A stretch of 27,932 bases of DNA, taken from contig CAXBPH010000071.1 in NCBI GenBank assembly GCA_963977445.1, positions 1 to 27,932 on the forward strand, in the 5' to 3' direction. This DNA is from an uncultured bacterium. Its GTDB lineage: Bacteria; Hydrogenedentota; Hydrogenedentia; Hydrogenedentales; JAEUWI01. Below are positions 5,774 through 17,578 of this stretch, in pieces. Position 1 is the stretch's first letter. Each line of letters begins with the position of its first letter. A model generated the notes under the pieces. The model worked only from the letters and a program-made list of their open reading frames with translations, was not told where the DNA came from and searched no databases. Both the position numbers and the translations under genes were made by a program.

Positions 5774-6753
5774 TAGAGAATATCCGATTCAGGAACCGTC
5801 TCGTGACGTTGACGGTAGTTTTTCTCCTTGCCGTGTCCATCGCACGGGCCGACGGGCTGCCCCACGTTGGCCGGCCAGCGATTGTCGTTGCTGGTGACAC
5901 CTTCAGCCTCGGCGATGGGGCCGAAGCTACGGCATCATTGCGACTGGGTGACACCCGTATTCCCCTGACCGTCACTACGAATGATAAGACGGCCCCGGAA
6001 GGGAAGTGGCTCGCCGAAGTTCCCGACGGCGTCGCACCGGGACGTTACGACTTGGTGCTGACGACTTCGGCCGCAGAGACCGAACAAATCGGTGCGGTCC
6101 ACGTGCTGGAGTCCTTTCCCACGAGCTACGTGCTTGCTTTGCTTCGGGCGGACCAGGTCGACAGCACGGAGGGGACGATGTTCTCACCTGCGCTGTTGGA
6201 CATCCTGCGCGGGGCAACGCCCAATCTCGTCATCGTGCTGGGTGCGTTGACCGCCGATGGTCAGGAGAGCGCCTATGAAGCGCTGGATAGACAGTTCGCC
6301 GGCCTCGACGTGCCGGTGTTCTATTGCCCCAATGAGCAGGAGTCCGCTCGGGAGACCTATCGGGCGCGCTACGGCAATCCCGTGTACCCCCAACGATTTG
6401 GTGATGATGGCTACCTGTTTCTTGGTGGCGGTCTTTCTCACGTGGACAGCATTCATGGTGTCCGGGCGGGGCATCTGTATCGATGGCGTCGTGCACTACG
6501 TTCCAGTCGGTGGAGTATTGGCGTAGCAACCCGATATGGGCTGGATTGGTCGATGCGCGAGCAACTGGTCTTATTTGCCGATGACCCGCTGGATTATCTC
6601 CTGGCAGGAGAAGGTGTGGAAACTTCTGGGGCGAAGGTTCCCTGGAGCAACACCCGCCTTGAAACCTTCGCGGATGCCCTGTCACCCTCCCTTCAACTCA
6701 TCGATGTTTCCCAAGAGCAGTTTGTCCCCCGGATCGTGAAGGTCACGGAGTAA
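5770..6753 (+). CDS. Secreted protein with N-terminal Ig-like region and a degenerate calcineurin-like metallophosphoesterase fold
   Basis: ATGA overlap with the upstream gene; signal peptide; PNLVIVLGALT and VPVFYCPNEQE align with the metallophosphoesterase GD and GNH[DE] strands but lack the ligands. Confidence 0.55.
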   Translation: MIENIRFRNRLVTLTVVFLLAVSIARADGLPHVGRPAIVVAGDTFSLGDGAEATASLRLGDTRIPLTVTTNDKTAPEGKWLAEVPDGVAPGRYDLVLTTSAAETEQIGAVHVLESFPTSYVLALLRADQVDSTEGTMFSPALLDILRGATPNLVIVLGALTADGQESAYEALDRQFAGLDVPVFYCPNEQESARETYRARYGNPVYPQRFGDDGYLFLGGGLSHVDSIHGVRAGHLYRWRRALRSSRWSIGVATRYGLDWSMREQLVLFADDPLDYLLAGEGVETSGAKVPWSNTRLETFADALSPSLQLIDVSQEQFVPRIVKVTE

Positions 6754-6792
6754 CGACCGGGTAGTTTTGTCGTCGGCGCCGGGGGGGATGGC

Positions 6793-7188
6793 CTACGATT
6801 GAACGATTGGCGCTTTCAGATGGCGACTTAGTCGTTTCTGAACGTTATCGCGTGTGACCGGTTTGCAGAGGATGTCGGTCGCCCCGGCCCGAATGGCCTG
6901 TTCCAGCGTTTTCCGTTCCTGATTGGCGGTACAGACGATAATCGGAACGTTCTTTGTCGCATCATTCTTCCGGACCCAACTGCAGACATCAAAACCGGAA
7001 ATCGTGGGCATCATCAGATCCAGAAATATCAGTTTCGGCACATCCTGCCCGATAAGCTTTATCGCATCCTCCCCGTTCTCCACCTCGAGAACATCGTGGC
7101 CCAGACTCTTGATAATGCCACCAAGAAGCCTGCGCATAAACGCGACATCGTCGACCACGAGAATAAAGCCTTGATCAAGTCTTTCCAC
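6793..7188 (-). CDS. Single-domain CheY-like response regulator
   Basis: ILVVDD, LIFLDLMMP (phospho-Asp), VCTA and CKP motifs. Likely GTG start at 7188 behind GAGAGAGG; the ORF extends to 7266. Confidence 0.9.
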   Translation of the reverse strand: MERLDQGFILVVDDVAFMRRLLGGIIKSLGHDVLEVENGEDAIKLIGQDVPKLIFLDLMMPTISGFDVCSWVRKNDATKNVPIIVCTANQERKTLEQAIRAGATDILCKPVTRDNVQKRLSRHLKAPIVQS

Positions 7189-7463
7189 AGAAGGGACCCT
7201 CTCTCGCGTTCGGACGGAAGCATTGTGTTGAAGATGAGAGCAAGTATGGATACGGCACCATCCCAACCAAACTTCATTGTAGCAAAGGCGGGGGAATTCG
7301 TCCCGTATTTATTGCAGCGTGTGTTGTGGAGATTTGGGCAGAAAGAATTTGCCCTGTAAGTAGTTAGCATTAAAACAGTTAGCCGAATCATGGCGCTATG
7401 GCTGATCCCTAATGATGTATGGCGCAAGCGGACGTCACTCAAACGCACGAGGGAGGAATGGCG

Positions 7464-8714
7464 ATGGGGCGATGGAAAAACTGGTTTCAACGAAAGAGCG
7501 AACGGGGTGTCCGGCCAGCGCCGACACCCCCGGCGGGCACCTTCAAGACCATAAGTCGGTCGGCCGACCTGGGACCACTTGGTGAAGGCTGGGGTAGCTA
7601 TGTGGGGATGCCCAACGAGACCCCCTTCGCCATGCTTCAGGTATACCGTTTTCTCCGGGACGCGATTCCCGATGTGTCGGATGCTATCTGGACCTGGAAG
7701 CGATTGTGTCAGACCGGCTACACCGTCGATTTCGAATCGGTAAGTTCGGAGGCCGCTACGGCACGGGCGCAACGATTGATAGGCGCCCTGGACAAGCGGG
7801 TGAATTCGGGCGACCGGGGCATGGAAGGTCTGCTCGATATCTTCTATACCTCCCTCTTCACCTATGGGGCCGCGGCCGTCGAAATTGTCCTGTCCCAAAG
7901 TCGTGAATCCATCTGGGATGTCGTACCCATAGATGTCTGGACGATTCGGTTTCGCCGGGAAGGGGGACAGCTTCAGGCCTACCAGGTGCTGGATGGGGAA
8001 AGCATCAAGTTGCCCATGGAGCGATTTATTTACGTGGGCCTCGACCGGGAGGGCACCAATCCCTACGGCCGTTCCATGCTTCGCTCCATTCCCTTCGTGG
8101 TCAAGATTCAACAACGCCTGATCGAAGATATGGCGAAGGCCACCCACAACGCGGGCTGGAACAAGCTGCACGTTCAGTATGGCGTTGAAGAGCGGGGGCG
8201 GGGCGAGAGCATCGAGGCCTATCAGCAGCGGATGCAGAGCAACCTCCTGGCGCTACGGGATAAGTTGAGCGGCCTGGAGGCCGACCAGAATCTGGTGACC
8301 TACGACAATGTAAACATCTCCATGTTACGGGGTGACCAGCGAACCCAGGTTTTCTACGACAACCACAAGGCCATTGAAGAGCAGGTGATTACGGGCATGC
8401 ATCTCATGCCGATTTTGTTGGGGCGTAACTATGGGACCACAGAGACCTATGGCACGGCCCAATTCGAAATCATCAATCGCCAGGTAGAAGCGGTGAACCG
8501 TAGCGTTCAGTGTATGTTGGCGCGGCTCTACAACTTTGAGCTGGCCTTGATGTGGGGCGAGGCGACGGCTCGGGTTCGCATGCGCACCAACCGCACGGTG
8601 GACGTGCTGAAGGAAGCCCAGGCCCGGGAGAAGGAAATTGGCAATGCCCTGAAGATGAAGGAGGCCGGTTTGTTGGATGAGGCCGGTCTGCGGGCGACGT
8701 TGCTGGGGAGTTGA
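7464..8714 (+). CDS. Phage portal-like protein
   Basis: About 416 aa; motifs LFTYGAAAVEIV, VVPIDVWTIRF, NPYGRSML and GMHLMPILLG match portal architecture; first gene of the head module; GGAGG RBS at 7452-7456. Confidence 0.8.
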   Translation: MGRWKNWFQRKSERGVRPAPTPPAGTFKTISRSADLGPLGEGWGSYVGMPNETPFAMLQVYRFLRDAIPDVSDAIWTWKRLCQTGYTVDFESVSSEAATARAQRLIGALDKRVNSGDRGMEGLLDIFYTSLFTYGAAAVEIVLSQSRESIWDVVPIDVWTIRFRREGGQLQAYQVLDGESIKLPMERFIYVGLDREGTNPYGRSMLRSIPFVVKIQQRLIEDMAKATHNAGWNKLHVQYGVEERGRGESIEAYQQRMQSNLLALRDKLSGLEADQNLVTYDNVNISMLRGDQRTQVFYDNHKAIEEQVITGMHLMPILLGRNYGTTETYGTAQFEIINRQVEAVNRSVQCMLARLYNFELALMWGEATARVRMRTNRTVDVLKEAQAREKEIGNALKMKEAGLLDEAGLRATLLGS

Positions 8715-8753
8715 TACTACCGTTGGACCTAACGTAATTGAAAGGAGGCTTGG

Positions 8754-9452
8754 GTGGAATTGGAACCATTTGTATTCCGACAGGCGGGACGTCTGGTGGC
8801 GTCCCGCGAGGCAAGCGAGGCGTCGAATGAGAACGATGTGGCGGCAGTAAATCGGTATGCCTTGCGCAACCTGTCGGCCGAGGAGTATGCGACCTTTACC
8901 CTCGATTTGTGTAACAACCAGATAGACCGGCACTTCAGCCGCTTCCCCGAGGAGGAACTGGAACGAATTAATGCGCTGGTTCCGGGACGTCCCCTGATGG
9001 AGCGTCATGACCTGCGGGGCACTTTGCCTCGGGGCCGATTTTTTCGGTCCACCCTCCATCAGGAAGGCGAGCACCTCGCTGTTCGCCCGGAAGTTTATGT
9101 GATGCGGAGCGCAGAAAATAGAGACTTCATCCTGAACATCGAAGGCGGCGTCTACCGGGAGACGTCGATTGGCTTTTCCTTTCGATTGCCCGAGTGCTCG
9201 GTGTGCGGCAACGATCTCCGGACCTGCGACCACGTTCCCGGGGCGACCTACGGCGAGCAAACGTGCCACTTCATCATGCGGGATGTATTGGAAGTGCTGG
9301 AAGGCTCCGTCGTTTCTTCGGGATCCCAGGGCACGGGCTTTGTCCGGGGGGAGCGTGCCGAAGACGGCCTGGAGGCGGCATTGACGGAAGCTCGGGATGA
9401 GTTTCATCGTCCCATTGAATTGGCATCGACCGACCTTTGGGCGCGGGAGTAG
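8754..9452 (+). CDS. HK97-type prohead (capsid maturation) protease with Zn-finger-like insertion
   Basis: Motifs IDRHFSRF, LMERHD (His), ETSIGF (Ser), CSVCG..CDHVPG and EGSVV; AAGGAGG RBS before GTG; lies between portal and capsid genes. Confidence 0.75.
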   Translation: MELEPFVFRQAGRLVASREASEASNENDVAAVNRYALRNLSAEEYATFTLDLCNNQIDRHFSRFPEEELERINALVPGRPLMERHDLRGTLPRGRFFRSTLHQEGEHLAVRPEVYVMRSAENRDFILNIEGGVYRETSIGFSFRLPECSVCGNDLRTCDHVPGATYGEQTCHFIMRDVLEVLEGSVVSSGSQGTGFVRGERAEDGLEAALTEARDEFHRPIELASTDLWARE

Positions 9453-9456
9453 CGAC

Positions 9457-9651
9457 ATGGCCGGAGAAAAATGCACCTGTCCTTTCGAGCCGCTTTATGC
9501 CTTGCAGGTGGAAACGGTTCGGGAAGACTTGCGGGAAGTGAAGGAGCGGGTTGGTCGATTGGAGGATACCCTGGGGCGGGGCGTACTGCTCCTGGTGGCC
9601 AACTTGATTGGGGTAAGCATAACGCTGGCGCAGCAACTGCTGTCTCAGTAG
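9457..9651 (+). CDS. Small coiled-coil protein with a C-terminal transmembrane segment (XhlA/holin-like topology), 64 aa
   Basis: ATG 4 nt after the protease stop with a GGGAG RBS; heptad pattern VREDLREVKERVGRLE followed by hydrophobic VLLLVANLIGVSITLA. Confidence 0.6.
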   Translation: MAGEKCTCPFEPLYALQVETVREDLREVKERVGRLEDTLGRGVLLLVANLIGVSITLAQQLLSQ

Positions 9652-9674
9652 ACGCAACCGGGGAAGGGGATTCT

Positions 9675-10376
9675 ATGTTGCATCGATTGCAGTGTGAGCG
9701 GGGCGGGGAAACGCGGGCAGGCACGGAGGGGGAACTACGGCGCTTCGTGCTCCATCGTCATCGGGATGGAGGGGGCGCCCATCTGGATTTGCGTCTTGAG
9801 CAGGACGGCTACCTGATGGGCTATCGCATCGACGGGCCAACGCTTGAGGGAACCCGGTGGGCCACGGTAAAGGCCCCCCATCCCACAACGTGGCTGACGC
9901 AAGATGGGGAGGCCGTCCGGGAAGACGAAGGTACGTATTTCTGGGATTCCGGCGGGGGCCACGAAGGGGTGCTGGTCCTGTGTGGTGCGCGGGATACCGT
10001 GTGTATCTGGGTGGACCCGGTGGACGACGTGAGCGCGGGGGACGTGGCGGCGTTGCGGGCTGCGGCAGAGACCATGGGGCTTGGCTTGGGGGATTTGGTG
10101 GCACTCGCCGAAGATGGGAAAACTGCCCGTGACCGTGCGGTAGCCCGCTACTGTGGCCTGGGCCGCGAACTGGACGGTGAAAGTTTCGACGACGGATTGT
10201 GGCGGCGCACGCTGGCGGGCGAACGGCTCGGGGTCGTCCAGCAATATCTCCACGGATTGGAGCTTCGCTTCGATCGCAAATATCCGCCGCTCCCGGTTTC
10301 ACAACCCGTGGCACTGGAAGAGGAAGCATGCGGCGGGGAAGATTCGTTGCGGGCGTTGAGCATACTCCGGAAATGA
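9675..10376 (+). CDS. LigD-type 3'-phosphoesterase-like domain fused to a helical scaffold-like C-terminus
   Basis: RRFVLHRH-x6-HLDLRLEQDGYL, APHPTTWL and EDEGTY resemble LigD PE FVxQKH-x5-HYDFRLE..DHPxxY..WDxGTW. RBS GGAAGGGG before ATG 9675. Confidence 0.65.
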   Translation: MLHRLQCERGGETRAGTEGELRRFVLHRHRDGGGAHLDLRLEQDGYLMGYRIDGPTLEGTRWATVKAPHPTTWLTQDGEAVREDEGTYFWDSGGGHEGVLVLCGARDTVCIWVDPVDDVSAGDVAALRAAAETMGLGLGDLVALAEDGKTARDRAVARYCGLGRELDGESFDDGLWRRTLAGERLGVVQQYLHGLELRFDRKYPPLPVSQPVALEEEACGGEDSLRALSILRK

Positions 10377-10480
10377 GCGACCCATGGACGAGAGCGTCCA
10401 TCGCGTAGATTCGGTAGTCGGCATAGTTTTTGTTTCGGGGCATGGGGCCTTTGAGCAAGGTGTAGAGGAGCAAGCAAACA

Positions 10481-10861
10481 ATGGCTTTTGGTGATACGGG
10501 TGGTTCGGTTACAGAGTTGATTATTACGTGTCGCACACCGTCGGCGGGTGGTGTAGCGATTGCGAAGGGGGATGCGGTCAAGCTGTCGGGGGCCTATGTG
10601 GTCACCAACGCTACGGACGCGGAAGATGGTGTCTTCGGTGAGGCATTGGCGGCGGCCACGGAGAATGACGTGGCGATTCCGGTGAAGGTGCGGGGTATCA
10701 GTATCTTCACCTATACGGGGACGGCCCCCACGGTGGATGGCGAGCAGGGCGTGGTGACATCGGCGACGGATGGTTCGGTGAAGGCACCGGCGTCGGGCAA
10801 TGGTCGGGGCATCAATGTGAAGGTTGATGCTACGGCCTCGTTGGTTCACGTGTTGCTCTAA
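10481..10861 (+). CDS. Capsid decoration/cement-like protein
   Basis: 126 aa, Gly/Ala/Thr/Val-rich beta pattern (IAKGDAVKL, FGEALAAA, IPVKVRGI); directly upstream of the capsid gene; AGGAG RBS. Confidence 0.65.
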   Translation: MAFGDTGGSVTELIITCRTPSAGGVAIAKGDAVKLSGAYVVTNATDAEDGVFGEALAAATENDVAIPVKVRGISIFTYTGTAPTVDGEQGVVTSATDGSVKAPASGNGRGINVKVDATASLVHVLL

Positions 10862-11065
10862 TTGGGGCGGGTGGCGCTTGGAGGACCTTTGCGTTCTCGC
10901 ACCCGTAAACGTGGTCGCGGCGCTCCCGTGTGTACGGGTGGCACCCTTGCAGTGCTTCTGGGTGGGGTAGAGTTCCTTTTGGGGCTCTTGCACCAGCAAA
11001 CATACGCGTCTGGTTAGTAACGGTTGGCATGGGCGTGTCCCGTGCAATGGATAAAGGGGAAATAC

Positions 11066-12115
11066 ATGGCTTATCAAGATACACAGATGAAAGAACAGAT
11101 TCGCTTTCTGTCGCAGTCGCCCGATGCCTTGCGGCAGGTGCGTGGGCAGGGGCTCTATGAAACGCTGAACAATCTGGGCTTGACCCACCAGCATTATTTT
11201 CGTGCCCTCGATACCTCGGTGCAGGATTACTGTGCCCAGGAATTCGGCATCGATATGAATCGGGTTACGGTGGACCGGTTTTTCCAGTCGGACCCGAATG
11301 CCAAGTGGCTTTTTCCCGATGTGGTGCGGGAGGCGGTGCTGACCGGGCTCCAGCGTAAGCCCGTGTATCCCGACCTGATTATGCACGACCAGCGGGTGGA
11401 GGGGACCGCCTGCGATGTGCCCTACGTCACGGAAGATGCCGGAAACGAGGAGCTTCGCAGTGTGGCCGAGGGGGCCGCGATTCCGGAATCGGAAATCCTC
11501 TATGGCGACCGCATCGTGAAGCTCGACAAGAAAGGCCGGGGCGTGCTGGCCTCCTATGAGGCGGTGCGCCGCATGAGTGTGGACATGTTGCGGGTCCACC
11601 TCCAGCGGATGGGTGAGCGACTGGGCCGCAGTCTGGATGCCCGTCTGGCTACAGTTTTGGCCGAGGGGGATTCGTCCGGCTCGGGCACGGCACCGGTGGT
11701 CATGAATACGGCGACGGCGGATACCTGGACCTATGGCGACTTGGTGGCGGCCTATATGAAGTTGAGCCAGGAGCACTACTTCACGCCGACGCACATGATC
11801 GTGGATAACGCCACGGCCCAGTCGGTGTTGCAACTGTCTCAGATCGCCGACAGTGCCCTCTTCGATTTCGCCAAGACCGGCAATCTGCCCACACCGCTCG
11901 GCGTGCAGCTCGTGCCCCTGGCCGATCAGCCGGCGGACACGGTGACCTTGTTGGACGCGGGCTTCGCCGTTCAGAAACTGACGGAACAGGATCTCATGGT
12001 GGAGTCGGACAAACTTATCAGCCAGCAGTGGGACCGGACCTATCTCACGGTGGTGACGGATTTTGCCATTACCTATGACAAGGCCCGTGTGGTGATGACG
12101 AGTGACTGGAGCTAG
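11066..12115 (+). CDS. HK97-fold major capsid protein
   Basis: About 349 aa; LFPDVV, VAEGAAIPE (E-loop), VKLDKKGRGVLASYEAVRR and LQRMGERLGRSLDARL spine helix; AAGGGG RBS. The true start is likely 11066 rather than 11024. Confidence 0.88.
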   Translation: MAYQDTQMKEQIRFLSQSPDALRQVRGQGLYETLNNLGLTHQHYFRALDTSVQDYCAQEFGIDMNRVTVDRFFQSDPNAKWLFPDVVREAVLTGLQRKPVYPDLIMHDQRVEGTACDVPYVTEDAGNEELRSVAEGAAIPESEILYGDRIVKLDKKGRGVLASYEAVRRMSVDMLRVHLQRMGERLGRSLDARLATVLAEGDSSGSGTAPVVMNTATADTWTYGDLVAAYMKLSQEHYFTPTHMIVDNATAQSVLQLSQIADSALFDFAKTGNLPTPLGVQLVPLADQPADTVTLLDAGFAVQKLTEQDLMVESDKLISQQWDRTYLTVVTDFAITYDKARVVMTSDWS

Positions 12116-12153
12116 GCGCTCAGCGGGTTGAGGCAGGGAACAGACCGGTGAAT

Positions 12154-12193
12154 CGGGTGCTGTGGGTGGCCAGGTGGTTGCCTGCAGCACCCG
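12154..12193 (+). terminator. Long RNA stem-loop after the capsid gene (attenuator or 3' stabiliser)
   Basis: CGGGTGCTGTGGGTGGCC-AGGT-GGTTGCCTGCAGCACCCG forms an 18-bp stem in which every non-Watson-Crick pair is G-U on the + strand. Only a weak U tail (TCTT). Confidence 0.6.
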
Positions 12194-12225
12194 TCTTGGC
12201 GTGGCGAAACGTGGGGAGTGTGGCT

Positions 12226-12639
12226 ATGGCGGCATGGGCGACGGAAGTCGGGGTTCGGTTGCGGGTACAGGTGGACGATGTGGGTGTGGCGAGTTCCGCA
12301 TTGGTGACCGCCTGCATTGAAGAGGCCCACGAACGGATTCTGGCCGAATTGGATGAGAGCATCGATGTAGAGGCGGCACCGGAGGCATTGGCGCAGGGGG
12401 AAACGCTGCTGGCGGCAGCGGGACTCATGAGCGCCCTGGCCTCCGGGGATGCGGCGGAGCAGGTGTCCCTGCAGATTGGTGGACAACGAATCGATGGGGG
12501 GCAGCGCTTCGCTTCTCTCCTGAGTGTGGCCCGTCGCTTTGAAAAAGAAGCGGCGGTTCTCCTTGCGCCCTATATGCGCAGGGCGTTGGCACAGGTTCCG
12601 GGGGACGTGACGAAATCAATCGACGTGCTGGGCGACTGA
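12226..12639 (+). CDS. Head-tail adaptor/connector-like protein
   Basis: 137 aa, helical (WATEVGVR..LVTACIEEAHERI..SLQIGG..LLAPY), the pattern of gp6/gp15/gp36-type adaptors; follows the capsid gene; GGGGAG RBS. Confidence 0.6.
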   Translation: MAAWATEVGVRLRVQVDDVGVASSALVTACIEEAHERILAELDESIDVEAAPEALAQGETLLAAAGLMSALASGDAAEQVSLQIGGQRIDGGQRFASLLSVARRFEKEAAVLLAPYMRRALAQVPGDVTKSIDVLGD

Positions 12640-12666
12640 GCGGGTTCGGGGTAGAAAGGGGGAAGG

Positions 12667-13350
12667 ATGGCAATTTCTGTTGGGGACTATTCCTTTGATG
12701 AGCGCCACACGACGGCACGGGAAACCTATGAAGCCGTGGGGGGCAAAGAAACACGGGTCGTTACAATTACGGGACTGCTGCGGGGCGCAGCGGATCGGGC
12801 GGCCCTCGACGGCGCGCTGGACACGATTATGCAATTGGCTTCTGCGGAGGAGAGCGTTTCGGTGTCTGTTCGTTCGGGACGACGTATCCTGGCCCGTCGG
12901 GAGAGTTTTTCGCGGGAGGTCAACGAACGTACGCTGACGGGGCAGTTTGTGTTGACCATGCGCGCCGACGAGGCCTTCGAGGAGTCTGTCGTCCTGCACG
13001 AAACGGCCTGGAGTATTGGTGCATCCGGCGCGACCCTTGAGCTGAGTCCGGGAGGATCGGCGGCGAGTCCGGCGGTGATTAGCATCGATGCCCTCGGGGA
13101 ACTGGTGGCCCCGACACTGAGTGACGGAACCCGGACGTTGACCTACGAAGGGGTGGTGCCTCTGGGGGCGCTGTTTGTGGTGGATGGGGAGGCCGCTCAG
13201 GTATGGATTGACGACGAAGACGTGACGCCCTATACCGTGGGGGCTTTTCCTGAGCTGGGGCCGGGCGCAACGACCCTGACCTACAGCGACGGCGCGACGA
13301 GCAGTCATCTTGCCGATGGGGTGGTGGCCTATCGTGATCGGTGGTGGTAG
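12667..13350 (+). CDS. Distal tail protein (Dit)-like siphovirus baseplate component
   Basis: Pattern RVVTITG, FVLTMRADEAF, PAVISI, FVVDG, FPELGPGATTL and terminal YRDRWW is typical of Dit proteins; strong purine-rich RBS. Confidence 0.7.
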   Translation: MAISVGDYSFDERHTTARETYEAVGGKETRVVTITGLLRGAADRAALDGALDTIMQLASAEESVSVSVRSGRRILARRESFSREVNERTLTGQFVLTMRADEAFEESVVLHETAWSIGASGATLELSPGGSAASPAVISIDALGELVAPTLSDGTRTLTYEGVVPLGALFVVDGEAAQVWIDDEDVTPYTVGAFPELGPGATTLTYSDGATSSHLADGVVAYRDRWW

Positions 13351-13352
13351 CC

Positions 13353-15092
13353 ATGACTTATGTCGTAGAAGTCGTTGACCGGAATGGCCTGCGGGTGGGA
13401 CGTTTCACCGACGTACCCCTGCTGGAAGTTACACGCACGGGTCCCGATGGTGACGACCGTATCGAGGGACTGCTGCCCCTGTCGCTGGCGCGCTTTGGCG
13501 TGGGCTATACCGTGCGGGTATTGGTGGAGGGCGCGGTGGTGGCTCACGGCACTGTGACGTCCGCCCGACCCGCGTGGGGCGACATACGTCGATTGATTGT
13601 GGACCGGTACGTAGATTTTCAGGAGCTCTTATCCGTCGTCGCCATTGGTCGGTGGGAGCCCTGGAATCGCCACGTTTCCGTGCGTATGGAAAACAGGCCG
13701 GTCGATGAGATGGTGCGTACCTTAATCAATCATGCCCTGGGGGCCGTGCACTACACGGTTGCCCATGGGGCCTATCCCGATGGGGCCGTTCGAGAATATG
13801 AGAAGTTCATCGCCCGTAAGGCATTGGCTGGGGCCCTGCCCTATGGGGGCATCGACAGTGGTCAGTGGGTGGGTGGCGCGCGCATTGACACGACCGGAGC
13901 CTATGCGAAGGACGGAGATACCATCGCGGGCCTGGTGGTGGATGGGGTGACCTGGCCGGACCTGCGCTTGATGATGGTCGACTGCGAGGAAAGCAGTCTC
14001 AACAGCCACGGTATAGGACGCCATCCGGAAACGGCGACCTGGGACAGTGCCCGCTACGCCCGTAGCGTGTATAAGCAGCGGGCCGATGGCGCTACCGCAC
14101 GGCTGCAGGCCTATATGGATGAAAAGGGCATTGATTATATCGAGCTCAATCCCCACCAGGATGGAGGCGGCGACTACGATGACCGGGTGGATGCCTATGG
14201 GCGCTACATTGGCCTGGTCTACGGCGGTGGGGAATGTTTCAACGCGGGGCTGGTGGAAGAGGGGCATGGGGACGTCTATCTCTACGACGACGGCCGCTTT
14301 CATGTGCCGGAGATGGCGCTGAAAGACTTTTACTCCTACGTGGGCGAACACGAAGACTCCATCGCCCCGTGTGAGACGGTGGTGGGTGCGCTGGACATCC
14401 GGGGTGGGGTCCTGGAGGCCATAACGGCCCTGGCGGCCATGGGCGATGGCTATGTGTTTCAGGTGGATGTCGATGGGGGCGTCCATTTTCGACGGGGAGA
14501 CGTGGTCGACGCCGTGGTGCCCGTCGTGCCAACGACGGTGGGCGTAGAACTCGGTCGGGATATCGCCGGGTTGGCCAATTTGCTGCACATTGAGGGGAAT
14601 CCCATCGATGGCGTGGCAGACGACTATTATGCTCAGGAGGAAAGTATCGATCTGTTGGGCACCGCTTCGCGCTACTTTCCGTATTACGCCCTGAGTCGTG
14701 TCGACGACGGGGCCCTCCTGGGGCAGGGGTTGCTGCGGGATCTGGCGTGGCCGGCTCGGGTGGGGCGGGCCTTGTTCTATCGGGGCGTGGCGCACCTTGT
14801 GCCGGGGACGCTACTCGAGTTTCGCGGGGACGTGCTCGAAGAGCGAGACGAGCCCGTGGCAGCGGGATGGGCCGATCGGCTCGGGCAGCGGTTGGTCGGT
14901 CGGGTAAGTCGCGTGGTCCATCGGCTGGCGGGCGCAACCGTGGAGACCCAGCTGGACTTGACCTCGCCCTATCGCTCGGTGGCCTCGCCCCTGAGTTTTA
15001 TCACGCGGAGTCAGGATAGTTTGTCCGAGTTTTTTCAATTTCGTCTGGATGACCCGACGATTGGGTTGGATATCGGGTTCCACCTGGATTGA
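13353..15092 (+). CDS. Baseplate hub/Tal-like tail protein with an inserted staphylococcal nuclease (thermonuclease) domain
   Basis: Follows Dit. Hub-like N-terminus (YVVEVVDRNG) and C-terminus (VLEAITALA..FQVDVDGGVHFR..LANLLHIEG..ESIDLLG). Internal DGDT, LRLMMVDCEE and DAYGRYIGLVY..FNAGLVEEG SNase motifs. Confidence 0.75.
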   Translation: MTYVVEVVDRNGLRVGRFTDVPLLEVTRTGPDGDDRIEGLLPLSLARFGVGYTVRVLVEGAVVAHGTVTSARPAWGDIRRLIVDRYVDFQELLSVVAIGRWEPWNRHVSVRMENRPVDEMVRTLINHALGAVHYTVAHGAYPDGAVREYEKFIARKALAGALPYGGIDSGQWVGGARIDTTGAYAKDGDTIAGLVVDGVTWPDLRLMMVDCEESSLNSHGIGRHPETATWDSARYARSVYKQRADGATARLQAYMDEKGIDYIELNPHQDGGGDYDDRVDAYGRYIGLVYGGGECFNAGLVEEGHGDVYLYDDGRFHVPEMALKDFYSYVGEHEDSIAPCETVVGALDIRGGVLEAITALAAMGDGYVFQVDVDGGVHFRRGDVVDAVVPVVPTTVGVELGRDIAGLANLLHIEGNPIDGVADDYYAQEESIDLLGTASRYFPYYALSRVDDGALLGQGLLRDLAWPARVGRALFYRGVAHLVPGTLLEFRGDVLEERDEPVAAGWADRLGQRLVGRVSRVVHRLAGATVETQLDLTSPYRSVASPLSFITRSQDSLSEFFQFRLDDPTIGLDIGFHLD

Positions 15093-15134
15093 GGGTAGTT
15101 CAACGACGGTGGCAACGCAGGGGAGGGAATTAAC

Positions 15135-15656
15135 GTGGCGATTAAAGGACAGTCCTACACCAAGACGCAGTGGATATTTGAGGAACGTCCCGTTTCGAGC
15201 GCGAAACTGAATCAATGGGATGACCGCATTGAGGCGGCGCTGGAAATGGCGTTTTTCCTGTTGAACCAGGCCTGGGGTGGCGGTAGTGGCGTATTGCGGG
15301 GAGTGAGCGCCGGAACGCTGGCGGTGACGCCTGATTCGCCGGAGAGCATGTCCGTCATCGTCGATGGAGGCTATGCCTTTGTGGAGTCCTACCCCTTTCG
15401 GTTGACGGAGGCATCGGCTGTGGCGGCGATTGTGCCGCCGACATCATTGGGGCGAATCGACCTCGTGCTGACGGATTTGTCGACCTGGGGCATTGTCGTG
15501 AAAAAGGGGCTGGAATCGGCATCGCCCGTCGCGCCCGATGTGGGGGCCGGCACCATGGCCCTGGCGGAATTGGTGTTGCGTCCGGGCATGTCGTCAATCC
15601 GGTCGATTGACGATGGGGTAAATGGGTATATCACGGATGTGCGTACCTTCCTGTAG
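15135..15656 (+). CDS. Minor tail/baseplate structural protein
   Basis: N-terminal YTKTQW..SAKLNQ motif seen in tail fibre/upper baseplate proteins; MSVIVDGGYAF, RIDLV, PVAP and LAELVL minor tail pattern; GGGAGG RBS before GTG. Confidence 0.6.
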   Translation: MAIKGQSYTKTQWIFEERPVSSAKLNQWDDRIEAALEMAFFLLNQAWGGGSGVLRGVSAGTLAVTPDSPESMSVIVDGGYAFVESYPFRLTEASAVAAIVPPTSLGRIDLVLTDLSTWGIVVKKGLESASPVAPDVGAGTMALAELVLRPGMSSIRSIDDGVNGYITDVRTFL

Positions 15657-15713
15657 GCCGTGATGGTCTTACAGGCGGCGCACGGGGTCAATACAAAGGA
15701 GGCATGGAAAGCT

Positions 15714-16064
15714 ATGGGAATCGACGTAGGGGTAACGGTACTGGGCACGGTGCTTGGCGGGCTGTGGGCGACTTTCAAGGCAAGTGATCGCTATCAGCGG
15801 ATGGAGCAGCGCCGATTTCGGCAGGCGCTCCTCGCACTCGAAAGTGGGGTCGAGCGGACCTATCAGGCCTATGTGAAGGCCATTAAGGCGGGGCGGGCCG
15901 ATGGGCGGCTTACGGAAGAGGAGAAGGCCCGGGCACGCTCCATGGCGCGCATGCGGGCCATCAAGCTGGCGCGGGAGGAGGGCATTGATCTGCTGCGCAC
16001 CATCGGGGAGGACTACATCGATGTGTGGATTGGCCGCCTTATTGGACGACGGAAAAGAATTTAG
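15714..16064 (+). CDS. Holin-like membrane protein (one N-terminal transmembrane helix plus charged helical tail)
   Basis: VGVTVLGTVLGGLWATF transmembrane segment, then GVERTYQAYVKAIK..GRLTEEEK; last gene of the virion operon; AAGGAGG RBS. Confidence 0.5.
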   Translation: MGIDVGVTVLGTVLGGLWATFKASDRYQRMEQRRFRQALLALESGVERTYQAYVKAIKAGRADGRLTEEEKARARSMARMRAIKLAREEGIDLLRTIGEDYIDVWIGRLIGRRKRI

Positions 16065-16091
16065 AATGGTGAATTTAGAATAGTGAATTAA
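16057..16091. repeat. Heptamer tandem repeat (GAATNNN)x5
   Basis: GAATTTA GAATGGT GAATTTA GAATAGT GAATTAA, overlapping the stop of the holin-like gene. Confidence 0.7.
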
Positions 16092-16154
16092 ATGGTCTCA
16101 CCATCAGGTTGTTGACGTTGGGTGCTGATTGGCGTAGGCTGGATAAAGATAGTG

Positions 16155-16197
16155 GGCGGGGGCGCTTCCATTTTGGGGGGCGCCCCCGCCTTTGTTT
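16155..16197 (+). terminator. Rho-independent terminator closing the virion operon
   Basis: GGCGGGGGCGC / GCGCCCCCGCC 11-bp stem, extendable inward by G-U pairs, followed by TTTGTTT. Confidence 0.8.
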
Positions 16198-16246
16198 ATG
16201 CCGCGATAGGCAATCAACGCTATGACGTTGAATGGAGGATAGTGCC

Positions 16247-16783
16247 ATGTTAGAAGACAATCCCTTACTGCACAAACGTGTATTAATCCTGGTGGGCGAA
16301 ATTTATGAAGACCTGGAGTTGTGGTACCCCAAGCTCCGGCTGGAAGAGGCGGGCGCAAATGTTACGGTGGCGGGTCCCGAAGCCGGGGTGAAGTACAACG
16401 GCAAGCACGGCTACCCCTGCGTGTCGGAAGCCCGAATCGACGACATGCTGGAAGCGGATTTTGACGGACTCATCGTGCCCGGCGGCTTCATGCCCGATGT
16501 TCTCCGTCGCGACCCAGCGGTACTGAAGCTGGTGAGCGATTTTGCAGCGTCGGGAAAGCTGGTGGCGGCCATCTGTCACGCGGGCTGGATTCCCATTTCG
16601 GCGAAGGTCTACAGCGGCGTCCGGGTGACGGGTTCACCGGGGATCAAGGATGATTTGGTTAACGCCGGGGCGATTTTTGAAGACGCCGAGGTGGTGGTGG
16701 ACCGACACTTTATTTCCAGCCGCCGTCCGGGCGATTTGCCAGCCTTCTGCAAGGCAATCATCGAATTCATGGCCCAAGCCTAG
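16247..16783 (+). CDS. pfpI: PfpI/DJ-1 family type 1 glutamine amidotransferase-like protein (protease I/deglycase)
   Basis: YEDLELWYP, VPGGFMPD, AAICHAGW (nucleophile Cys-His) and SRRPGDL motifs; GGAGG RBS. Confidence 0.9.
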   Translation: MLEDNPLLHKRVLILVGEIYEDLELWYPKLRLEEAGANVTVAGPEAGVKYNGKHGYPCVSEARIDDMLEADFDGLIVPGGFMPDVLRRDPAVLKLVSDFAASGKLVAAICHAGWIPISAKVYSGVRVTGSPGIKDDLVNAGAIFEDAEVVVDRHFISSRRPGDLPAFCKAIIEFMAQA

Positions 16784-16787
16784 CCCC

Positions 16788-17037
16788 CGGGGACTGCACC
16801 GACGTCGTAACCCCAGGCATGTATGAATGACGTCGTGGCAAGCCGAACGTTGGTGGTGGGGGAAGTGCATCGGGGACTGCACCGACGTAGTAACCCCAGG
16901 CATGTATGAATGACGTCGTGGCGAGCCGAACGTTGGTGGTGAGGGAAGTGCATCGGGGACTGCACCGACGTAGTAACCCCAGGCATGTATGAATGACGTC
17001 GTCGCGAGCCGAGAGTTGGTGGTGAGGGAAGTAACAT
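16788..17037. repeat. Tandem array of three near-identical 83-bp units
   Basis: Units start at 16788, 16871 and 16954: CGGGGACTGCACCGACGT(C/A)GTAACCCCAGGCATGTATGAATGACGTCGT...GTTGGTGGTG(G/A)GGGAAGT. Lies between convergent genes. Confidence 0.95.
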
Positions 17038-17085
17038 AGGATAGTCGGGGCCGTCCCCCTGAGGGGATGACGTGGGAGGAAACTC

Positions 17086-17108
17086 GTGGGACCTGTGGGA
17101 CCTGTGGG
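17086..17108. repeat. 9-bp tandem repeat (GTGGGACCT)x2.5
   Basis: GTGGGACCT GTGGGACCT GTGGG. Confidence 0.6.
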
Positions 17109-17197
17109 TTCCTTTTTACGCTTAGGGCGGGGGTATCCAGGGAAGGTGGCGCAATGGCATCTATTCGATGATGGGCCAAGTGCATGTACTTCCTTCG

Positions 17198-17578
17198 CTA
17201 CTTCCCGCGCACGGCGCCGATGATGCGCTCCATGTGGCTGAGGTAGTCCTTGAGCACCTTTTTCCCATCCTTCGTGATGGCGTATTCCGTTTTGGGCATG
17301 CGCCCTTCGAAGCTCTTGGTGCAACTGATGTAGTTGGCTTCTTCGAGTTTGCGGGCGTGGACGCTCAGGTTGCCGTCGGACGTATCGAGGAGGTGCTTCA
17401 GTTCGGTGAAGGTGAGCTTGTTGTTCACGGCCAGGGCGCTGATAATGGCGAGACGGGTGCGTTCGTGGACGAGGCGGTTGAGGTTGGTGGTGGTTTTCGT
17501 TTCGGGAACGACCACGGCGCTCAAGTCTCCTTTGGTGGTAGTTCTTGCTTTCGCTTTTCGAGCCGTATTGCCAGCCAT
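17198..17578 (-). CDS. Winged helix-turn-helix transcriptional regulator (ArsR/MarR-like, HTH_34 type)
   Basis: LNRLVHERTRLAIISAL..FTELK..SDGNLSVHARKLEEANYI..K.FEGRMPKTEY motif; AGGAAAAGG RBS. Confidence 0.9.
   Translation of the reverse strand: MAGNTARKAKARTTTKGDLSAVVVPETKTTTNLNRLVHERTRLAIISALAVNNKLTFTELKHLLDTSDGNLSVHARKLEEANYISCTKSFEGRMPKTEYAITKDGKKVLKDYLSHMERIIGAVRGK

Follow-up and report, generated by a model that had tools for sequence, protein, structure and literature searches.

Why would a bacterial lineage keep the genes of a phage head and tail tip in its chromosome, with no packaging motor, tail tube or tape measure beside them? The question is raised by a compact 8.6 kb gene cluster on the + strand of a 27,932-nucleotide stretch of DNA (contig CAXBPH010000071.1 of assembly GCA_963977445.1, hereafter the window) from an uncultured bacterium of the phylum Hydrogenedentota; a full-text literature search found no published description of it. 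An earlier note, made from the letters of this DNA, had proposed a capsid-plus-baseplate operon and a candidate domesticated system similar to gene transfer agents (GTA). The eleven-gene set proves to consist of phage head and tail-tip genes that are kept in the chromosomes of many Hydrogenedentota species, and we are highly confident that it is a host-maintained functional particle operon. That it is what remains of a tailed phage, domesticated long ago, fixed in the chromosome and kept by Hydrogenedentota as a functional operon for which a GTA-like use is the likeliest one, is a reading to which we give about an even chance of being correct. The GTA-like function taken by itself is the weakest step, and we advance it tentatively, as somewhat short of even.

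Gene content of the cluster

Relatives were collected with patterns of the major capsid protein (MCP), taking one genome per species: 181 stretches matched, 103 of them encode a relative and 80 loci were kept, each viewed with 10 kb on either side (loci are denoted by L and a number). In the window, the list of open reading frames (ORFs) gives an uninterrupted + strand series of 11 co-oriented genes at 7464-16064, opening at 7419 or, with the refined start, at 7464. Ten ORFs of 116-583 aa are plain in that list, and the eleventh is a 64-aa gene at 9457-9651 that has matches in 60 of the 80 loci, so that the eleven co-oriented, uninterrupted ORFs of the earlier note stand. The start codons were refined from orthologue lengths and Shine-Dalgarno (SD) motifs and four were moved: the portal gene to an ATG at 7464 preceded by the SD GAGGGAGGA, which is the coordinate of the earlier note, g3 to an ATG at 9675, g6 to an ATG at 12226 and g10 to an ATG at 15714; the long ORFs 9471-10376 and 12148-12639 are probably over-extended at the N-terminus. 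An SD-like motif lies upstream of at least seven of the 11 genes, in keeping with the clear ribosome-binding sites that had been claimed for most of them, and G-rich purine tracts precede the remaining ones. The genes are as follows.

7464..8714 (ORF opens 7419), + strand: g1, portal protein (phrog_3753, 4.3e-45; Pfam Portal_Mu, 9.1e-7)
8754..9452, + strand: g2, probable prohead maturation protease of assemblin fold, with a Cys3-His zinc-ribbon-like insert (phrog_16951, 8e-38)
9457..9651, + strand: g2b, 64-aa protein with a coiled-coil-like N-terminal part and a hydrophobic C-terminal helix
9675..10376 (ORF opens 9471), + strand: g3, two-domain protein with a predicted N-terminal LigD-type 3'-phosphoesterase (PE) domain and a conserved helical C-terminal domain
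10481..10861, + strand: g4, small head protein of 126 aa (phrog_4588 'virion structural protein', 2.3e-6)
11066..12115 (ORF opens 11024), + strand: g5, HK97-fold MCP (Pfam Phage_capsid_4, 1.7e-14; phrog_3922, 4.8e-50)
12226..12639 (ORF opens 12148), + strand: g6, head-tail adaptor-like protein (weak match to phrog_19646)
12667..13350, + strand: g7, distal tail protein (Dit)-like (phrog_33, 2e-8; Pfam SPP1_Dit, 1e-3, under the cutoff)
13341..15092, + strand: g8, baseplate hub of gp27/Mu gp44/VgrG/Tal-like type with a predicted staphylococcal nuclease (SNase) domain inserted at residues ~187-322 (fold of the AlphaFold2, AF2, model and profile)
15135..15656, + strand: g9, BppU-N-like, the stand-alone N-terminal anchor domain of longer phage tail or baseplate proteins (phrog_5339, 2e-6)
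15714..16064 (ORF opens 15660), + strand: g10, small protein with a single hydrophobic helix at the N-terminus, followed by a charged helical tail (SD AAGGAGG ahead of the ATG)

The head module comprises a portal, a maturation protease and an HK97-type capsid in the order of tailed phages, with weak fold support for the protease. The portal is 26-29% identical to those of Bacillus phage vB_BcM_CUBc25 (hereafter CUBc25) and Enterococcus phage fHoEfm07, and its identity across our loci amounts to 53-88%; to the matches listed for the MCP may be added a sub-threshold one to the NCBIfam HK97 capsid model (7.9e-5). By tblastn, g2 matches the N-terminal half of the 403-aa gene that precedes the MCP gene in CUBc25 and, in Flavonifractor phage Cormatin, the product annotated as 'major head and protease protein' (30-35% identity in both cases), and the top PDB matches of its AF2 model (pLDDT 76.6) in Foldseek are herpesvirus assemblins and T4 gp21 (probability 0.96, TMt 0.53). 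All 59 sequences compared agree in fourteen residues, namely H60, S62, H85, D86, E130, S138, C148, C151, C158, H160, C171, E183, S185 and S191. We call this protein a prohead protease only as a probable assignment because no fold match reaches an E-value of 1e-3; a sequence-profile search of the PDB yielded no helpful match for it. An HNH-type nuclease, suggested by the Cys/His cluster, was considered for g2 and rejected, as the fold matches and the phage homologues favour the prohead protease. The short g2b, whose tblastn matches (35-85% identity) always lie just 5' of g3, belongs to no family that we could match and is presumably scaffold-like by its position. As for g4, it occupies the slot of a ~130-aa gene ahead of the MCP gene in related phages and looks like a decoration- or scaffold-like head protein; a profile search of the PDB gave no sequence match for it.

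Downstream of the capsid gene, the cluster turns to the neck and the tail tip. The nearest named Atlas clusters of g6 are Phage_connect_1, Mu gp36, DUF4054 and SU10_adaptor (TM by query 0.60-0.63), which offers a lead towards a head-tail adaptor, the PDB profile search giving no sequence match. The profile of g7 matches SPP1 gp19.1 (2x8k, 5.1e-6). The AF2 model of g8 (pLDDT 87.7, pTM 0.87) retrieves with Foldseek the hubs of extracellular contractile injection systems, phages and type VI secretion systems in the PDB (7aef_q at 3.7e-11, 3d37, 3cdd, 1wru) and tail hub and minor tail proteins in BFVD (1.5e-13). For g9, the PHROG matches are to virion proteins of 303-633 aa and do not extend past their first ~130 residues, and the Atlas structure rows are clusters bearing BppU_IgG, Collar or Gp10_C (TM by query 0.72-0.74); a profile search of the PDB returned nothing useful, and the BppU-type N-terminal anchor is a lead. 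No family or PDB match was obtained for g10, which we call holin-like because in relatives it adjoins a gene for an M15-like peptidase. This gene of ~155 aa is found in 30 of 55 loci (e.g., L043:14460-14927) and is absent from the window and its sub-clade; it follows g9, or the last structural gene if g9 is absent, and lies directly 5' of g10 where g10 is present. Three of five members tested match PHROG endolysin families (6.3e-7 to 6e-3), one of nine matches Pfam Peptidase_M15_3 (0.011), the L-Ala-D-Glu peptidase structure 2vo9 is matched at 0.13, and the alignment contains what we take to be the SxHxxGxAxD and HxH motifs of such enzymes. A modestly supported but probable endolysin of the M15/LAS-like type is what these matches point to; the earlier statement that there is no endolysin gene is correct for the window and does not extend to its relatives.

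Two structural genes carry nucleic-acid-processing domains, as the earlier note had recognized. The insert of g8 matches SNase chains by profile (2e-7) and by Foldseek (TMt 0.62-0.66). The NCBIfam matches of the cluster proteins, all sub-threshold, also include one to the EcnA nuclease (0.0019). The equivalents of SNase D21, R35, D40, E43 and R87, which we take to be the Ca-binding Asp, the catalytic Glu and the two Arg of the enzyme, are kept in 48, 52, 51, 50 and 52 of 52 sequences, respectively; by profile, fold and these columns the insert is an SNase domain with its catalytic residues preserved. A profile of 25 orthologues of g3 matches the PE-domain structures 3p43 (5.5e-7), 3p4h (2.5e-5) and 3n9b (4.4e-3); NCBIfam LigD_PE_dom gives 0.0057, far under the cutoff, Pfam gives no match to g3, and the conserved C-terminal domain has no match. 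The residues H29 (48/49 sequences), H36 (48/49), D38 (49/49), R40 (49/49), E42 (48/49) and H69 (49/49) are kept, among which we presume the His/His/Asp metal site and the active-site Arg and His, and the column aligned to the PE tyrosine is a Trp in 47 of 49. The N-terminal domain of g3 is, on this profile evidence, a LigD 3'-phosphoesterase domain with its catalytic columns intact. By tblastn, neither g3 (against 50,697 phage records) nor g8 has a match in phage records. SNase-type nucleases leave 3'-phosphate ends, and the PE domain of LigD removes 3'-phosphates (and 3' ribonucleotides) to leave 3'-OH ends; the pairing of both enzymes is suggestive of an action on DNA ends.

No integrase, repressor, replication gene, tail tube, tape measure, tail terminator or sheath was found in the window, nor a terminase or an attachment site (att) repeat, in line with what the earlier note had seen. 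Neither Pfam nor PHROGs assigns a terminase among the cluster ORFs; tblastn with the large terminase (TerL) of CUBc25 and fHoEfm07 and the small terminase (TerS) of fHoEfm07 against the window and all loci gave a best E-value of 0.07. A Walker A pattern search revealed no P-loop in a real frame, its two matches being a spurious frame and the conserved DGxTAR of g3. None of the 11 cluster proteins of the window matches any of the 5,027 PADLOC models, and the M15-like peptidase of L043 is likewise unmatched.

Retention in Hydrogenedentota

The earlier note had proposed to compare gene order in related genomes, and the cluster turned out to be collinear: wherever contigs reach, all eleven genes stand in the same order in the 80 loci. 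Searches with hidden Markov models, counted over the loci that reach each position, found g1 in 62/63, g2 in 65/68, g3 in 74/75, g4 in 77/77, g6 in 70/71, g7 in 64/67, g8 in 60/66, g9 in 51/58 and g10 in 44/52, the 80/80 for g5 being a product of how the search was built; the missing g2 of L012 and L052 is probably due to contig edges or inserts. The records of 57 of the 80 loci are labelled Hydrogenedent*, 16 are labelled 'uncultured Nitrospirales/Nitrospiraceae' and seven otherwise (Planctomycetota, Bathyarchaeia, FCB group, metagenome, and uncultured bacterium three times). Nineteen of the 23 loci without a Hydrogenedentota label (L013, L020, L023-L025, L029, L030, L037, L038, L045, L048, L058-L060, L063, L067, L069, L070 and L079) are titled uncultured Nitrospirales/Nitrospiraceae, Planctomycetota, Bathyarchaeia or FCB group. 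The non-Hydrogenedentota labels interleave with Hydrogenedentota at very short distances in the capsid tree, L045 (Bathyarchaeia) and L047 (Hydrogenedentota), for example, differing by tips of 0.03, and because of this interleaving we read them as labelling or binning noise, that is, as likely mislabelled or contaminated bins. A protein search returned 361 MCP relatives at E<=1e-5 (90% clusters); the 120 listed are 341-352 aa long and 68-94% identical, their named sources are Hydrogenedentes/Hydrogenedentota save one 'bacterium' and one 'FCB group bacterium', and several are on contigs of 0.1-0.5 Mb. The 80 kept loci have 80 different accession prefixes (read by eye) and include two complete chromosomes, L055 and L061, which fits one cluster copy per genome.

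The cluster is under purifying selection. The orthologues hardly vary in length (MCP 347-352 aa in 78 loci, g4 123-128 aa in 76, g7 225-231 aa in 63 and g9 170-174 aa in 50). The window was compared with its five closest relatives by the method of Nei and Gojobori (NG86) for ten genes and five partners, g2b being left out and four pairs being not computable; the ratio of nonsynonymous to synonymous divergence (dN/dS, omega) is 0.035-0.345 in 45 of the 46 computable gene-partner pairs, values that are rough and upper-range because dS is saturated, mostly >1. The outlier, g3 against L003 with a dN of 2.06, is attributed to mis-set coordinates. The ratio near 1 that the earlier note would have taken as a sign of decay is thus not what the genes display. 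The ten genes have positively correlated distance matrices (Spearman 0.29-0.73), as expected for a cluster that diverges as a unit. MCP and portal are more conserved than the host neighbours that are shared with deeper relatives: in L009, MCP and portal are 73% and 65% identical vs 45% for the M4 peptidase and 33% for the PD40 protein, the PfpI protein with 74% being the exception, and in L055 the values are 68% and 74% vs 49% and 37%.

The MCP of these loci forms one tight clade with 59-94% identity. Among 1.84 billion representatives at 50% identity, the search recovered one full-length member of the clade (72%, 576 bits) and fragments; the next full-length matches are at ~31% (134 bits) and none outside the clade exceeds about 35%. 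The ten of these outside proteins that were looked up lie on contigs of 1.4-82 kb, and only one bears a capsid name. In a quick maximum-likelihood tree made with IQ-TREE, the stem to five outside capsids measures 5.07+3.61 substitutions per site vs a median tip of 0.14. Since such an identity gap around the clade is unlike ordinary phage capsid families, we take it as the mark of a slowly evolving, host-bound element. As regards the origin of the cluster, its portal, protease and MCP all have their matches, at 25-35% identity, in one phage group that comprises CUBc25, fHoEfm07, Cormatin and unannotated records. In CUBc25 and fHoEfm07, the TerL gene stands just before the portal gene, and five to seven connector genes, the tube and the tape measure come after the MCP gene; because TerL, tube and tape measure stand there, our cluster resembles the layout of these phages without the packaging genes and without all that lies between the adaptor and Dit.

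The surroundings of the cluster are those of a bacterial chromosome. All 14 flank ORFs of the window are cellular, the cluster has a G+C of 0.57-0.63 similar to that of its flanks, no tRNA was found and no Rfam family was matched in the window, and flanking att-like direct repeats are limited to chance-level matches of 14-30 nt. Over all loci, 246 ORFs of at least 120 aa lay no more than 3.5 kb from an end of the cluster; they were reduced to 196 family representatives, which were searched with Pfam (107 at 1e-5, 89 at 1e-6). Not one of the 196 belongs to a terminase, integrase/recombinase or replication family; the matches are to glycoside hydrolases, peptidases, transporters, DnaG primase, fumarase, secretion ATPases and others, and the sole phage-type one is a gp19-like protein at L076. 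Neighbour families are shared by 7 of 17 pairs of loci at an MCP distance <0.15, by 14/275 at 0.15-0.25, 29/460 at 0.25-0.30, 15/380 at 0.30-0.35 and 1/143 at >0.35, some of the shared families being perhaps generic. The earlier note had named variable loci as a finding that would speak against host maintenance: the loci do vary between deep lineages, but neighbour sharing decays with capsid distance, which argues for a fixed locus eroded by rearrangement and not for site-specific insertion. With collinear gene order in 80 genomes, omega between 0.04 and 0.35 and cellular neighbours, the proposal of a host-maintained capsid-plus-baseplate particle in place of a decaying prophage is strengthened.

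The boundaries of the operon and its immediate neighbours in the window are the following.

7267..7463, + strand: upstream intergenic region and presumed promoter, separating the portal gene from the divergent response-regulator gene
16154..16191, + strand: intrinsic terminator closing the operon (16-bp stem with 13 G-C pairs, 6-nt loop, T-rich tail)
6793-7266, - strand: divergent CheY-like gene (Pfam Response_reg, 2e-27)
16232-16783, + strand: DJ-1/PfpI gene (Pfam, 9e-44)

Both the terminator, which ranks best among 16 terminator-like sites in 6500-17500, and the CheY-like and PfpI flanks had been noted before and are confirmed. Farther out lie genes for an M4 peptidase, a PD40 protein, an HTH_34 regulator, PSCyt/PSD1 proteins and an RND efflux system. 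The stretch upstream of the portal gene (7267-7463) showed no sigma-70-like site. In the closest relatives, the window's own sub-clade, the words GTAAGT and GATCCCTA are shared in the portal-upstream stretch; of 55 portal-upstream regions (260 nt; the window and 54 loci), 17 contain the word GTGCAAC, against a maximum of 9 in 20 shuffles, and in deeper relatives it usually lies 40-60 nt ahead of the portal start. These words are possible promoter or regulator sites. The CheY-like regulator of the window is common to L006 and L061 (53-58% identity) and to L009 and L076 (50%), and it gives a weak PADLOC match (8e-5) to the C-terminal part of the PD-T4-6 model, which probably reflects the receiver domain only. 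Three head-to-tail copies of an 83-nt unit occupy 16788-17036 (88-100% identity to the reference copy; 96% matches and a score of 448 in Tandem Repeats Finder), beginning 5 nt past the PfpI stop codon on the side of PfpI away from the cluster; they match no Rfam family, and a CRISPR array was rejected as the repeat has no spacers. A second, shorter repeat at 16057-16089 consists of 2.4 copies of the 14-nt unit GAATTTAGAATAGT across the g10 stop codon, just 5' of the terminator.

Some lineages have added genes to the cluster. An extra gene for a protein of 370-620 aa stands in a hypervariable slot between g2 and g2b in 14 of 57 loci and is absent from the window (L011:848-2716, L015:4148-5506, L020:6706-8499, L033:6910-8622, L038:6571-8259, L045:6522-7742, L060:7303-8421, L069:6484-8136, L072:2124-3680 and others). 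The protein has an N-terminal hydrophobic signal-like segment, a conserved motif of PRYLEELR-GGGYGD type and a variable middle with weak CBM_4_9 and depolymerase-like matches, and with Laminin_G_3 (2.6e-22) in L060. An exported protein within a block of head genes is odd; a surface receptor, a head fibre and a moron come into consideration. At L075:6049-8866, ankyrin/kelch and NHL-repeat genes are found between g3 and g4; at L035:11151-12242, a DDE transposase gene lies between the capsid gene and g6; and L027:1-9500 has no g1-g3 upstream of g4, where an 801-aa ORF with a homologue in L076 is found instead.

Possible functions of the particle

It is tempting to picture the product of this operon as follows. 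The portal, the assemblin-fold protease g2, the scaffold-like protein, the small head protein and the HK97-fold MCP would build a portal-bearing icosahedral head matured by g2. Protein g6 would dock on the portal, and a Dit ring and a hub trimer would shut the channel directly, giving a stubby tip on the neck, decorated by g9 and made with neither tube nor tape measure. The hub would display the Ca-nuclease-type (SNase) domain, while the PE protein g3 would be made with the head proteins and probably carried in or on the head via its C-terminal domain. Release of the particle would take place by lysis through g10 and, in many lineages, the M15-like wall peptidase. In a GTA-like use, cellular DNA would be packaged by a terminase encoded elsewhere and the two enzymes may trim and heal the DNA ends.

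We rank the GTA-like role first because portals and adaptors have no other known job and because known GTAs keep genes at other loci. The structural cluster sits in the host chromosome with no integration or replication genes, as seen in the window and in the 196 flank representatives, and omega, gene lengths and the isolated clade indicate long-term retention under purifying selection. Several results weigh against this reading and have to be set beside it. No terminase, tape measure or tail completion gene was found in the cluster or within 10 kb at the 80 loci, nor any tail tube save the gp19-like gene at L076; with motor and tube absent, the parts that a GTA needs to fill and to empty its head are unaccounted for. 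The deletions fall exactly at the positions that these genes have in phages, which fits loss as well as relocation, and since many flank ORFs have no Pfam match, a partner gene may have escaped recognition. The gp19-like gene (L076:2738-3742) encodes a 334-aa protein with two stretches of T4 gp19-type tail tube (Pfam, 6.8e-19); beside it, directly upstream of the portal gene, a gene at L076:3762-4712 encodes a 316-aa protein, both being co-oriented with the cluster and 5' of the portal gene. Neither has a homologue in the other 79 loci, and they may be a fragment of an adjoining contractile system or a lineage-specific addition.

The tail tip is also not indispensable. Hub and g9 are lost together in six loci and L055 lacks g9 only, giving totals of 6/66 for the hub and 7/58 for g9. 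Dit is retained in L050, L073 and L081, in the last of these together with the lysin; L058 and L080 are left with the adaptor-like gene only, and in L082 the capsid gene is followed directly by the lysin and g10. All six hub-less loci belong to one part of the tree with 18 members, mixed with hub-bearing loci, and this interspersion on the MCP tree indicates at least three losses. The peptidase gene is missing from 25 of 55 loci and g10 from 8 of 52. Moreover, the names adaptor, BppU-N and holin are leads or inference, the protease call rests on fold matches with E-values of 0.03-0.1, the saturation of dS mentioned above bears on every omega value, and all loci were found via the MCP, so that our counts cover MCP-bearing genomes only. 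The host-maintained part of the GTA-like system proposed by the earlier note has stood, whereas its GTA function is a tentative reading, with no terminase, tube or tape measure within 10 kb and with several losses of the hub and the BppU-like protein.

The best of the rival explanations is a portal-bearing capsid that has ceased to package DNA with a terminase, its portal being plugged, and that would serve as a nanocompartment or an extracellular enzyme-carrying particle. It would carry the SNase-type nuclease on the hub and the 3'-phosphoesterase in or on the head to nucleic acid, for instance to attack or scavenge DNA outside the cell. Motor (TerL/TerS) and conduit (tube and tape measure) are absent at all 80 loci exactly where the phage relatives encode them, the cluster has no P-loop protein, the head genes persist in hub-less lineages, and two conserved nucleic-acid enzymes, catalytically intact by their residues, are built into structural genes with no tblastn match in 50,697 phage records. 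Against such a capsid speaks the maintenance of portal and adaptor (53-88% identity), which have no other known role; the known HK97-fold compartments, the encapsulins, are not known to have a portal, and the nuclease-bearing hub is itself dispensable in 6 of 66 loci. We consider this explanation unlikely on balance. The same low standing applies to its broader form, in which the cluster would be a new domesticated virus structure distinct from GTAs, tailocins and encapsulins, serving enzymes and not injection, and which might cut and de-phosphorylate foreign or environmental DNA or load DNA by a novel route.

Dependence on a helper phage would be another way to account for a missing terminase and tube with no need for unlinked host copies: the chromosomal element would provide its own heads and tips, borrow a terminase and perhaps tails, and act as a satellite or as a defence that diverts packaging. 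Capsid-forming satellites are indeed known, the capsid-forming phage-inducible chromosomal islands (cf-PICIs). However, no integrase, replication, excision or small-terminase gene is present in or near any locus, none of the cluster proteins has a PADLOC match, and the 80 loci on 80 differently named contigs fit one copy per genome; slow co-divergence within one isolated clade is unlike satellites and defence islands, which are patchy and turn over fast. Because of the lack of mobility genes and PADLOC matches and the slow unit-wise divergence, a satellite or defence role fits poorly, and we hold it to be quite improbable.

Two further explanations carry little weight. In the first one, the cluster would be the structural module of an active and widespread temperate phage or mobile element whose other genes lie >10 kb away, as the flanks that differ between deep lineages might suggest. 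Yet the immediate neighbours are cellular on both sides at every locus examined, neighbour sharing falls with MCP distance (from 7/17 pairs below 0.15 to 1/143 above 0.35), no MCP relative of 35-59% identity exists in the set of 1.84 billion, and the window has none of the integrase, att, repressor, replication and terminase features of an intact or inducible prophage, which makes this explanation very improbable. The second one, a decaying prophage remnant left by deletions and kept by chance, can appeal to the large parts of a phage genome that are missing, to the transposase inside the cluster of L035 and to the lack of g1-g3 in L027, but apart from these two loci and the six hub-less ones dozens of species carry these eleven genes intact, with saturated dS, omega of 0.04-0.35, invariant lengths and conserved active-site residues, and we give it hardly any credence.

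Under the preferred reading of a domesticated, GTA-like particle with its terminase encoded elsewhere, the cluster would define a new, independently domesticated family of short-tailed GTAs and offer a natural test of the minimum that a GTA requires. If there is no terminase, it would be a portal-bearing capsid with a role outside DNA packaging, which would be new.

Comparison with known systems

The virus-derived particle systems known to be maintained throughout bacterial lineages are few, namely the GTA families, tailocins, contractile injection systems and encapsulins, and every one of them has been instructive as to the reuse of viral machines by cells. The operon described here would be a further one, from a phylum that has received little study and is represented mainly by metagenome-assembled genomes, with a part list unlike any known kind, that is, a head, portal, neck and hub, with motor, tube and tape measure not nearby and with two DNA-end enzymes. 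The reference for GTAs is that of Rhodobacter capsulatus (RcGTA), a phage structural operon that is fixed in the alphaproteobacterial chromosome and has neither integrase nor replication genes; it has been inherited with the host over long times under purifying selection, its particles leave the cell by lysis, and some of its functions are encoded off the cluster. Our cluster is similar in being a chromosomal operon that lacks integrase and replication genes and is under purifying selection. It differs in that the RcGTA cluster encodes a large terminase, a tube and a tape measure, whereas none was found at the locus and in the adjoining 10 kb in 80 genomes; the two share no sequence kinship other than their HK97-type folds, they belong to different phyla, and we know of no SNase-bearing hub or PE-domain head protein in RcGTA.

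The nearest published idea known to us concerns archaea: loci derived from Caudovirales in Thaumarchaeota are described as conserved morphogenetic modules without att or replication genes and read as possibly domesticated and GTA-like (PMC6563490). They were found via TerL, and the figure legend lists TerS, TerL, a major tail protein and a tape measure; the three elements are described as highly divergent and of separate origin (PMC6563490). The Hydrogenedentota cluster has one origin, occurs in many species and comes with no terminase.

Among phages, CUBc25 and fHoEfm07 share with the cluster the order of portal, protease, ~130-aa gene and MCP. They differ in being complete genomes of 44-47 kb and in their protease gene of ~380-400 aa vs 229-232 aa in the cluster; tblastn revealed no match to g3 or g8 in CUBc25, fHoEfm07 or Cormatin. 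The tail tip recalls the baseplates of siphophages (SPP1, and the lactococcal Dit/Tal/BppU type) through the Dit of g7, the hub fold of g8 and, as a lead, the BppU-type anchor of g9. In contrast to these baseplates, the Dit of the cluster has no tube or tape measure to cap, g9 has no distal receptor-binding part, and the hub bears a nuclease where siphophages have a wall-degrading or fibre domain.

Two other kinds of element make use of a phage-type shell. The cf-PICIs likewise have their own portal, protease, capsid and connectors and no tail genes; they are mobile between strains and possess genes for an integrase, for replication and for packaging, whereas the cluster is without these genes. 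Encapsulins offer the other likeness, a host-kept HK97-fold shell to which enzymes are targeted, but they possess no portal, protease, adaptor or baseplate. The cluster of Hydrogenedentota has all four, its portal, adaptor-like protein, Dit and hub setting it apart from an encapsulin.

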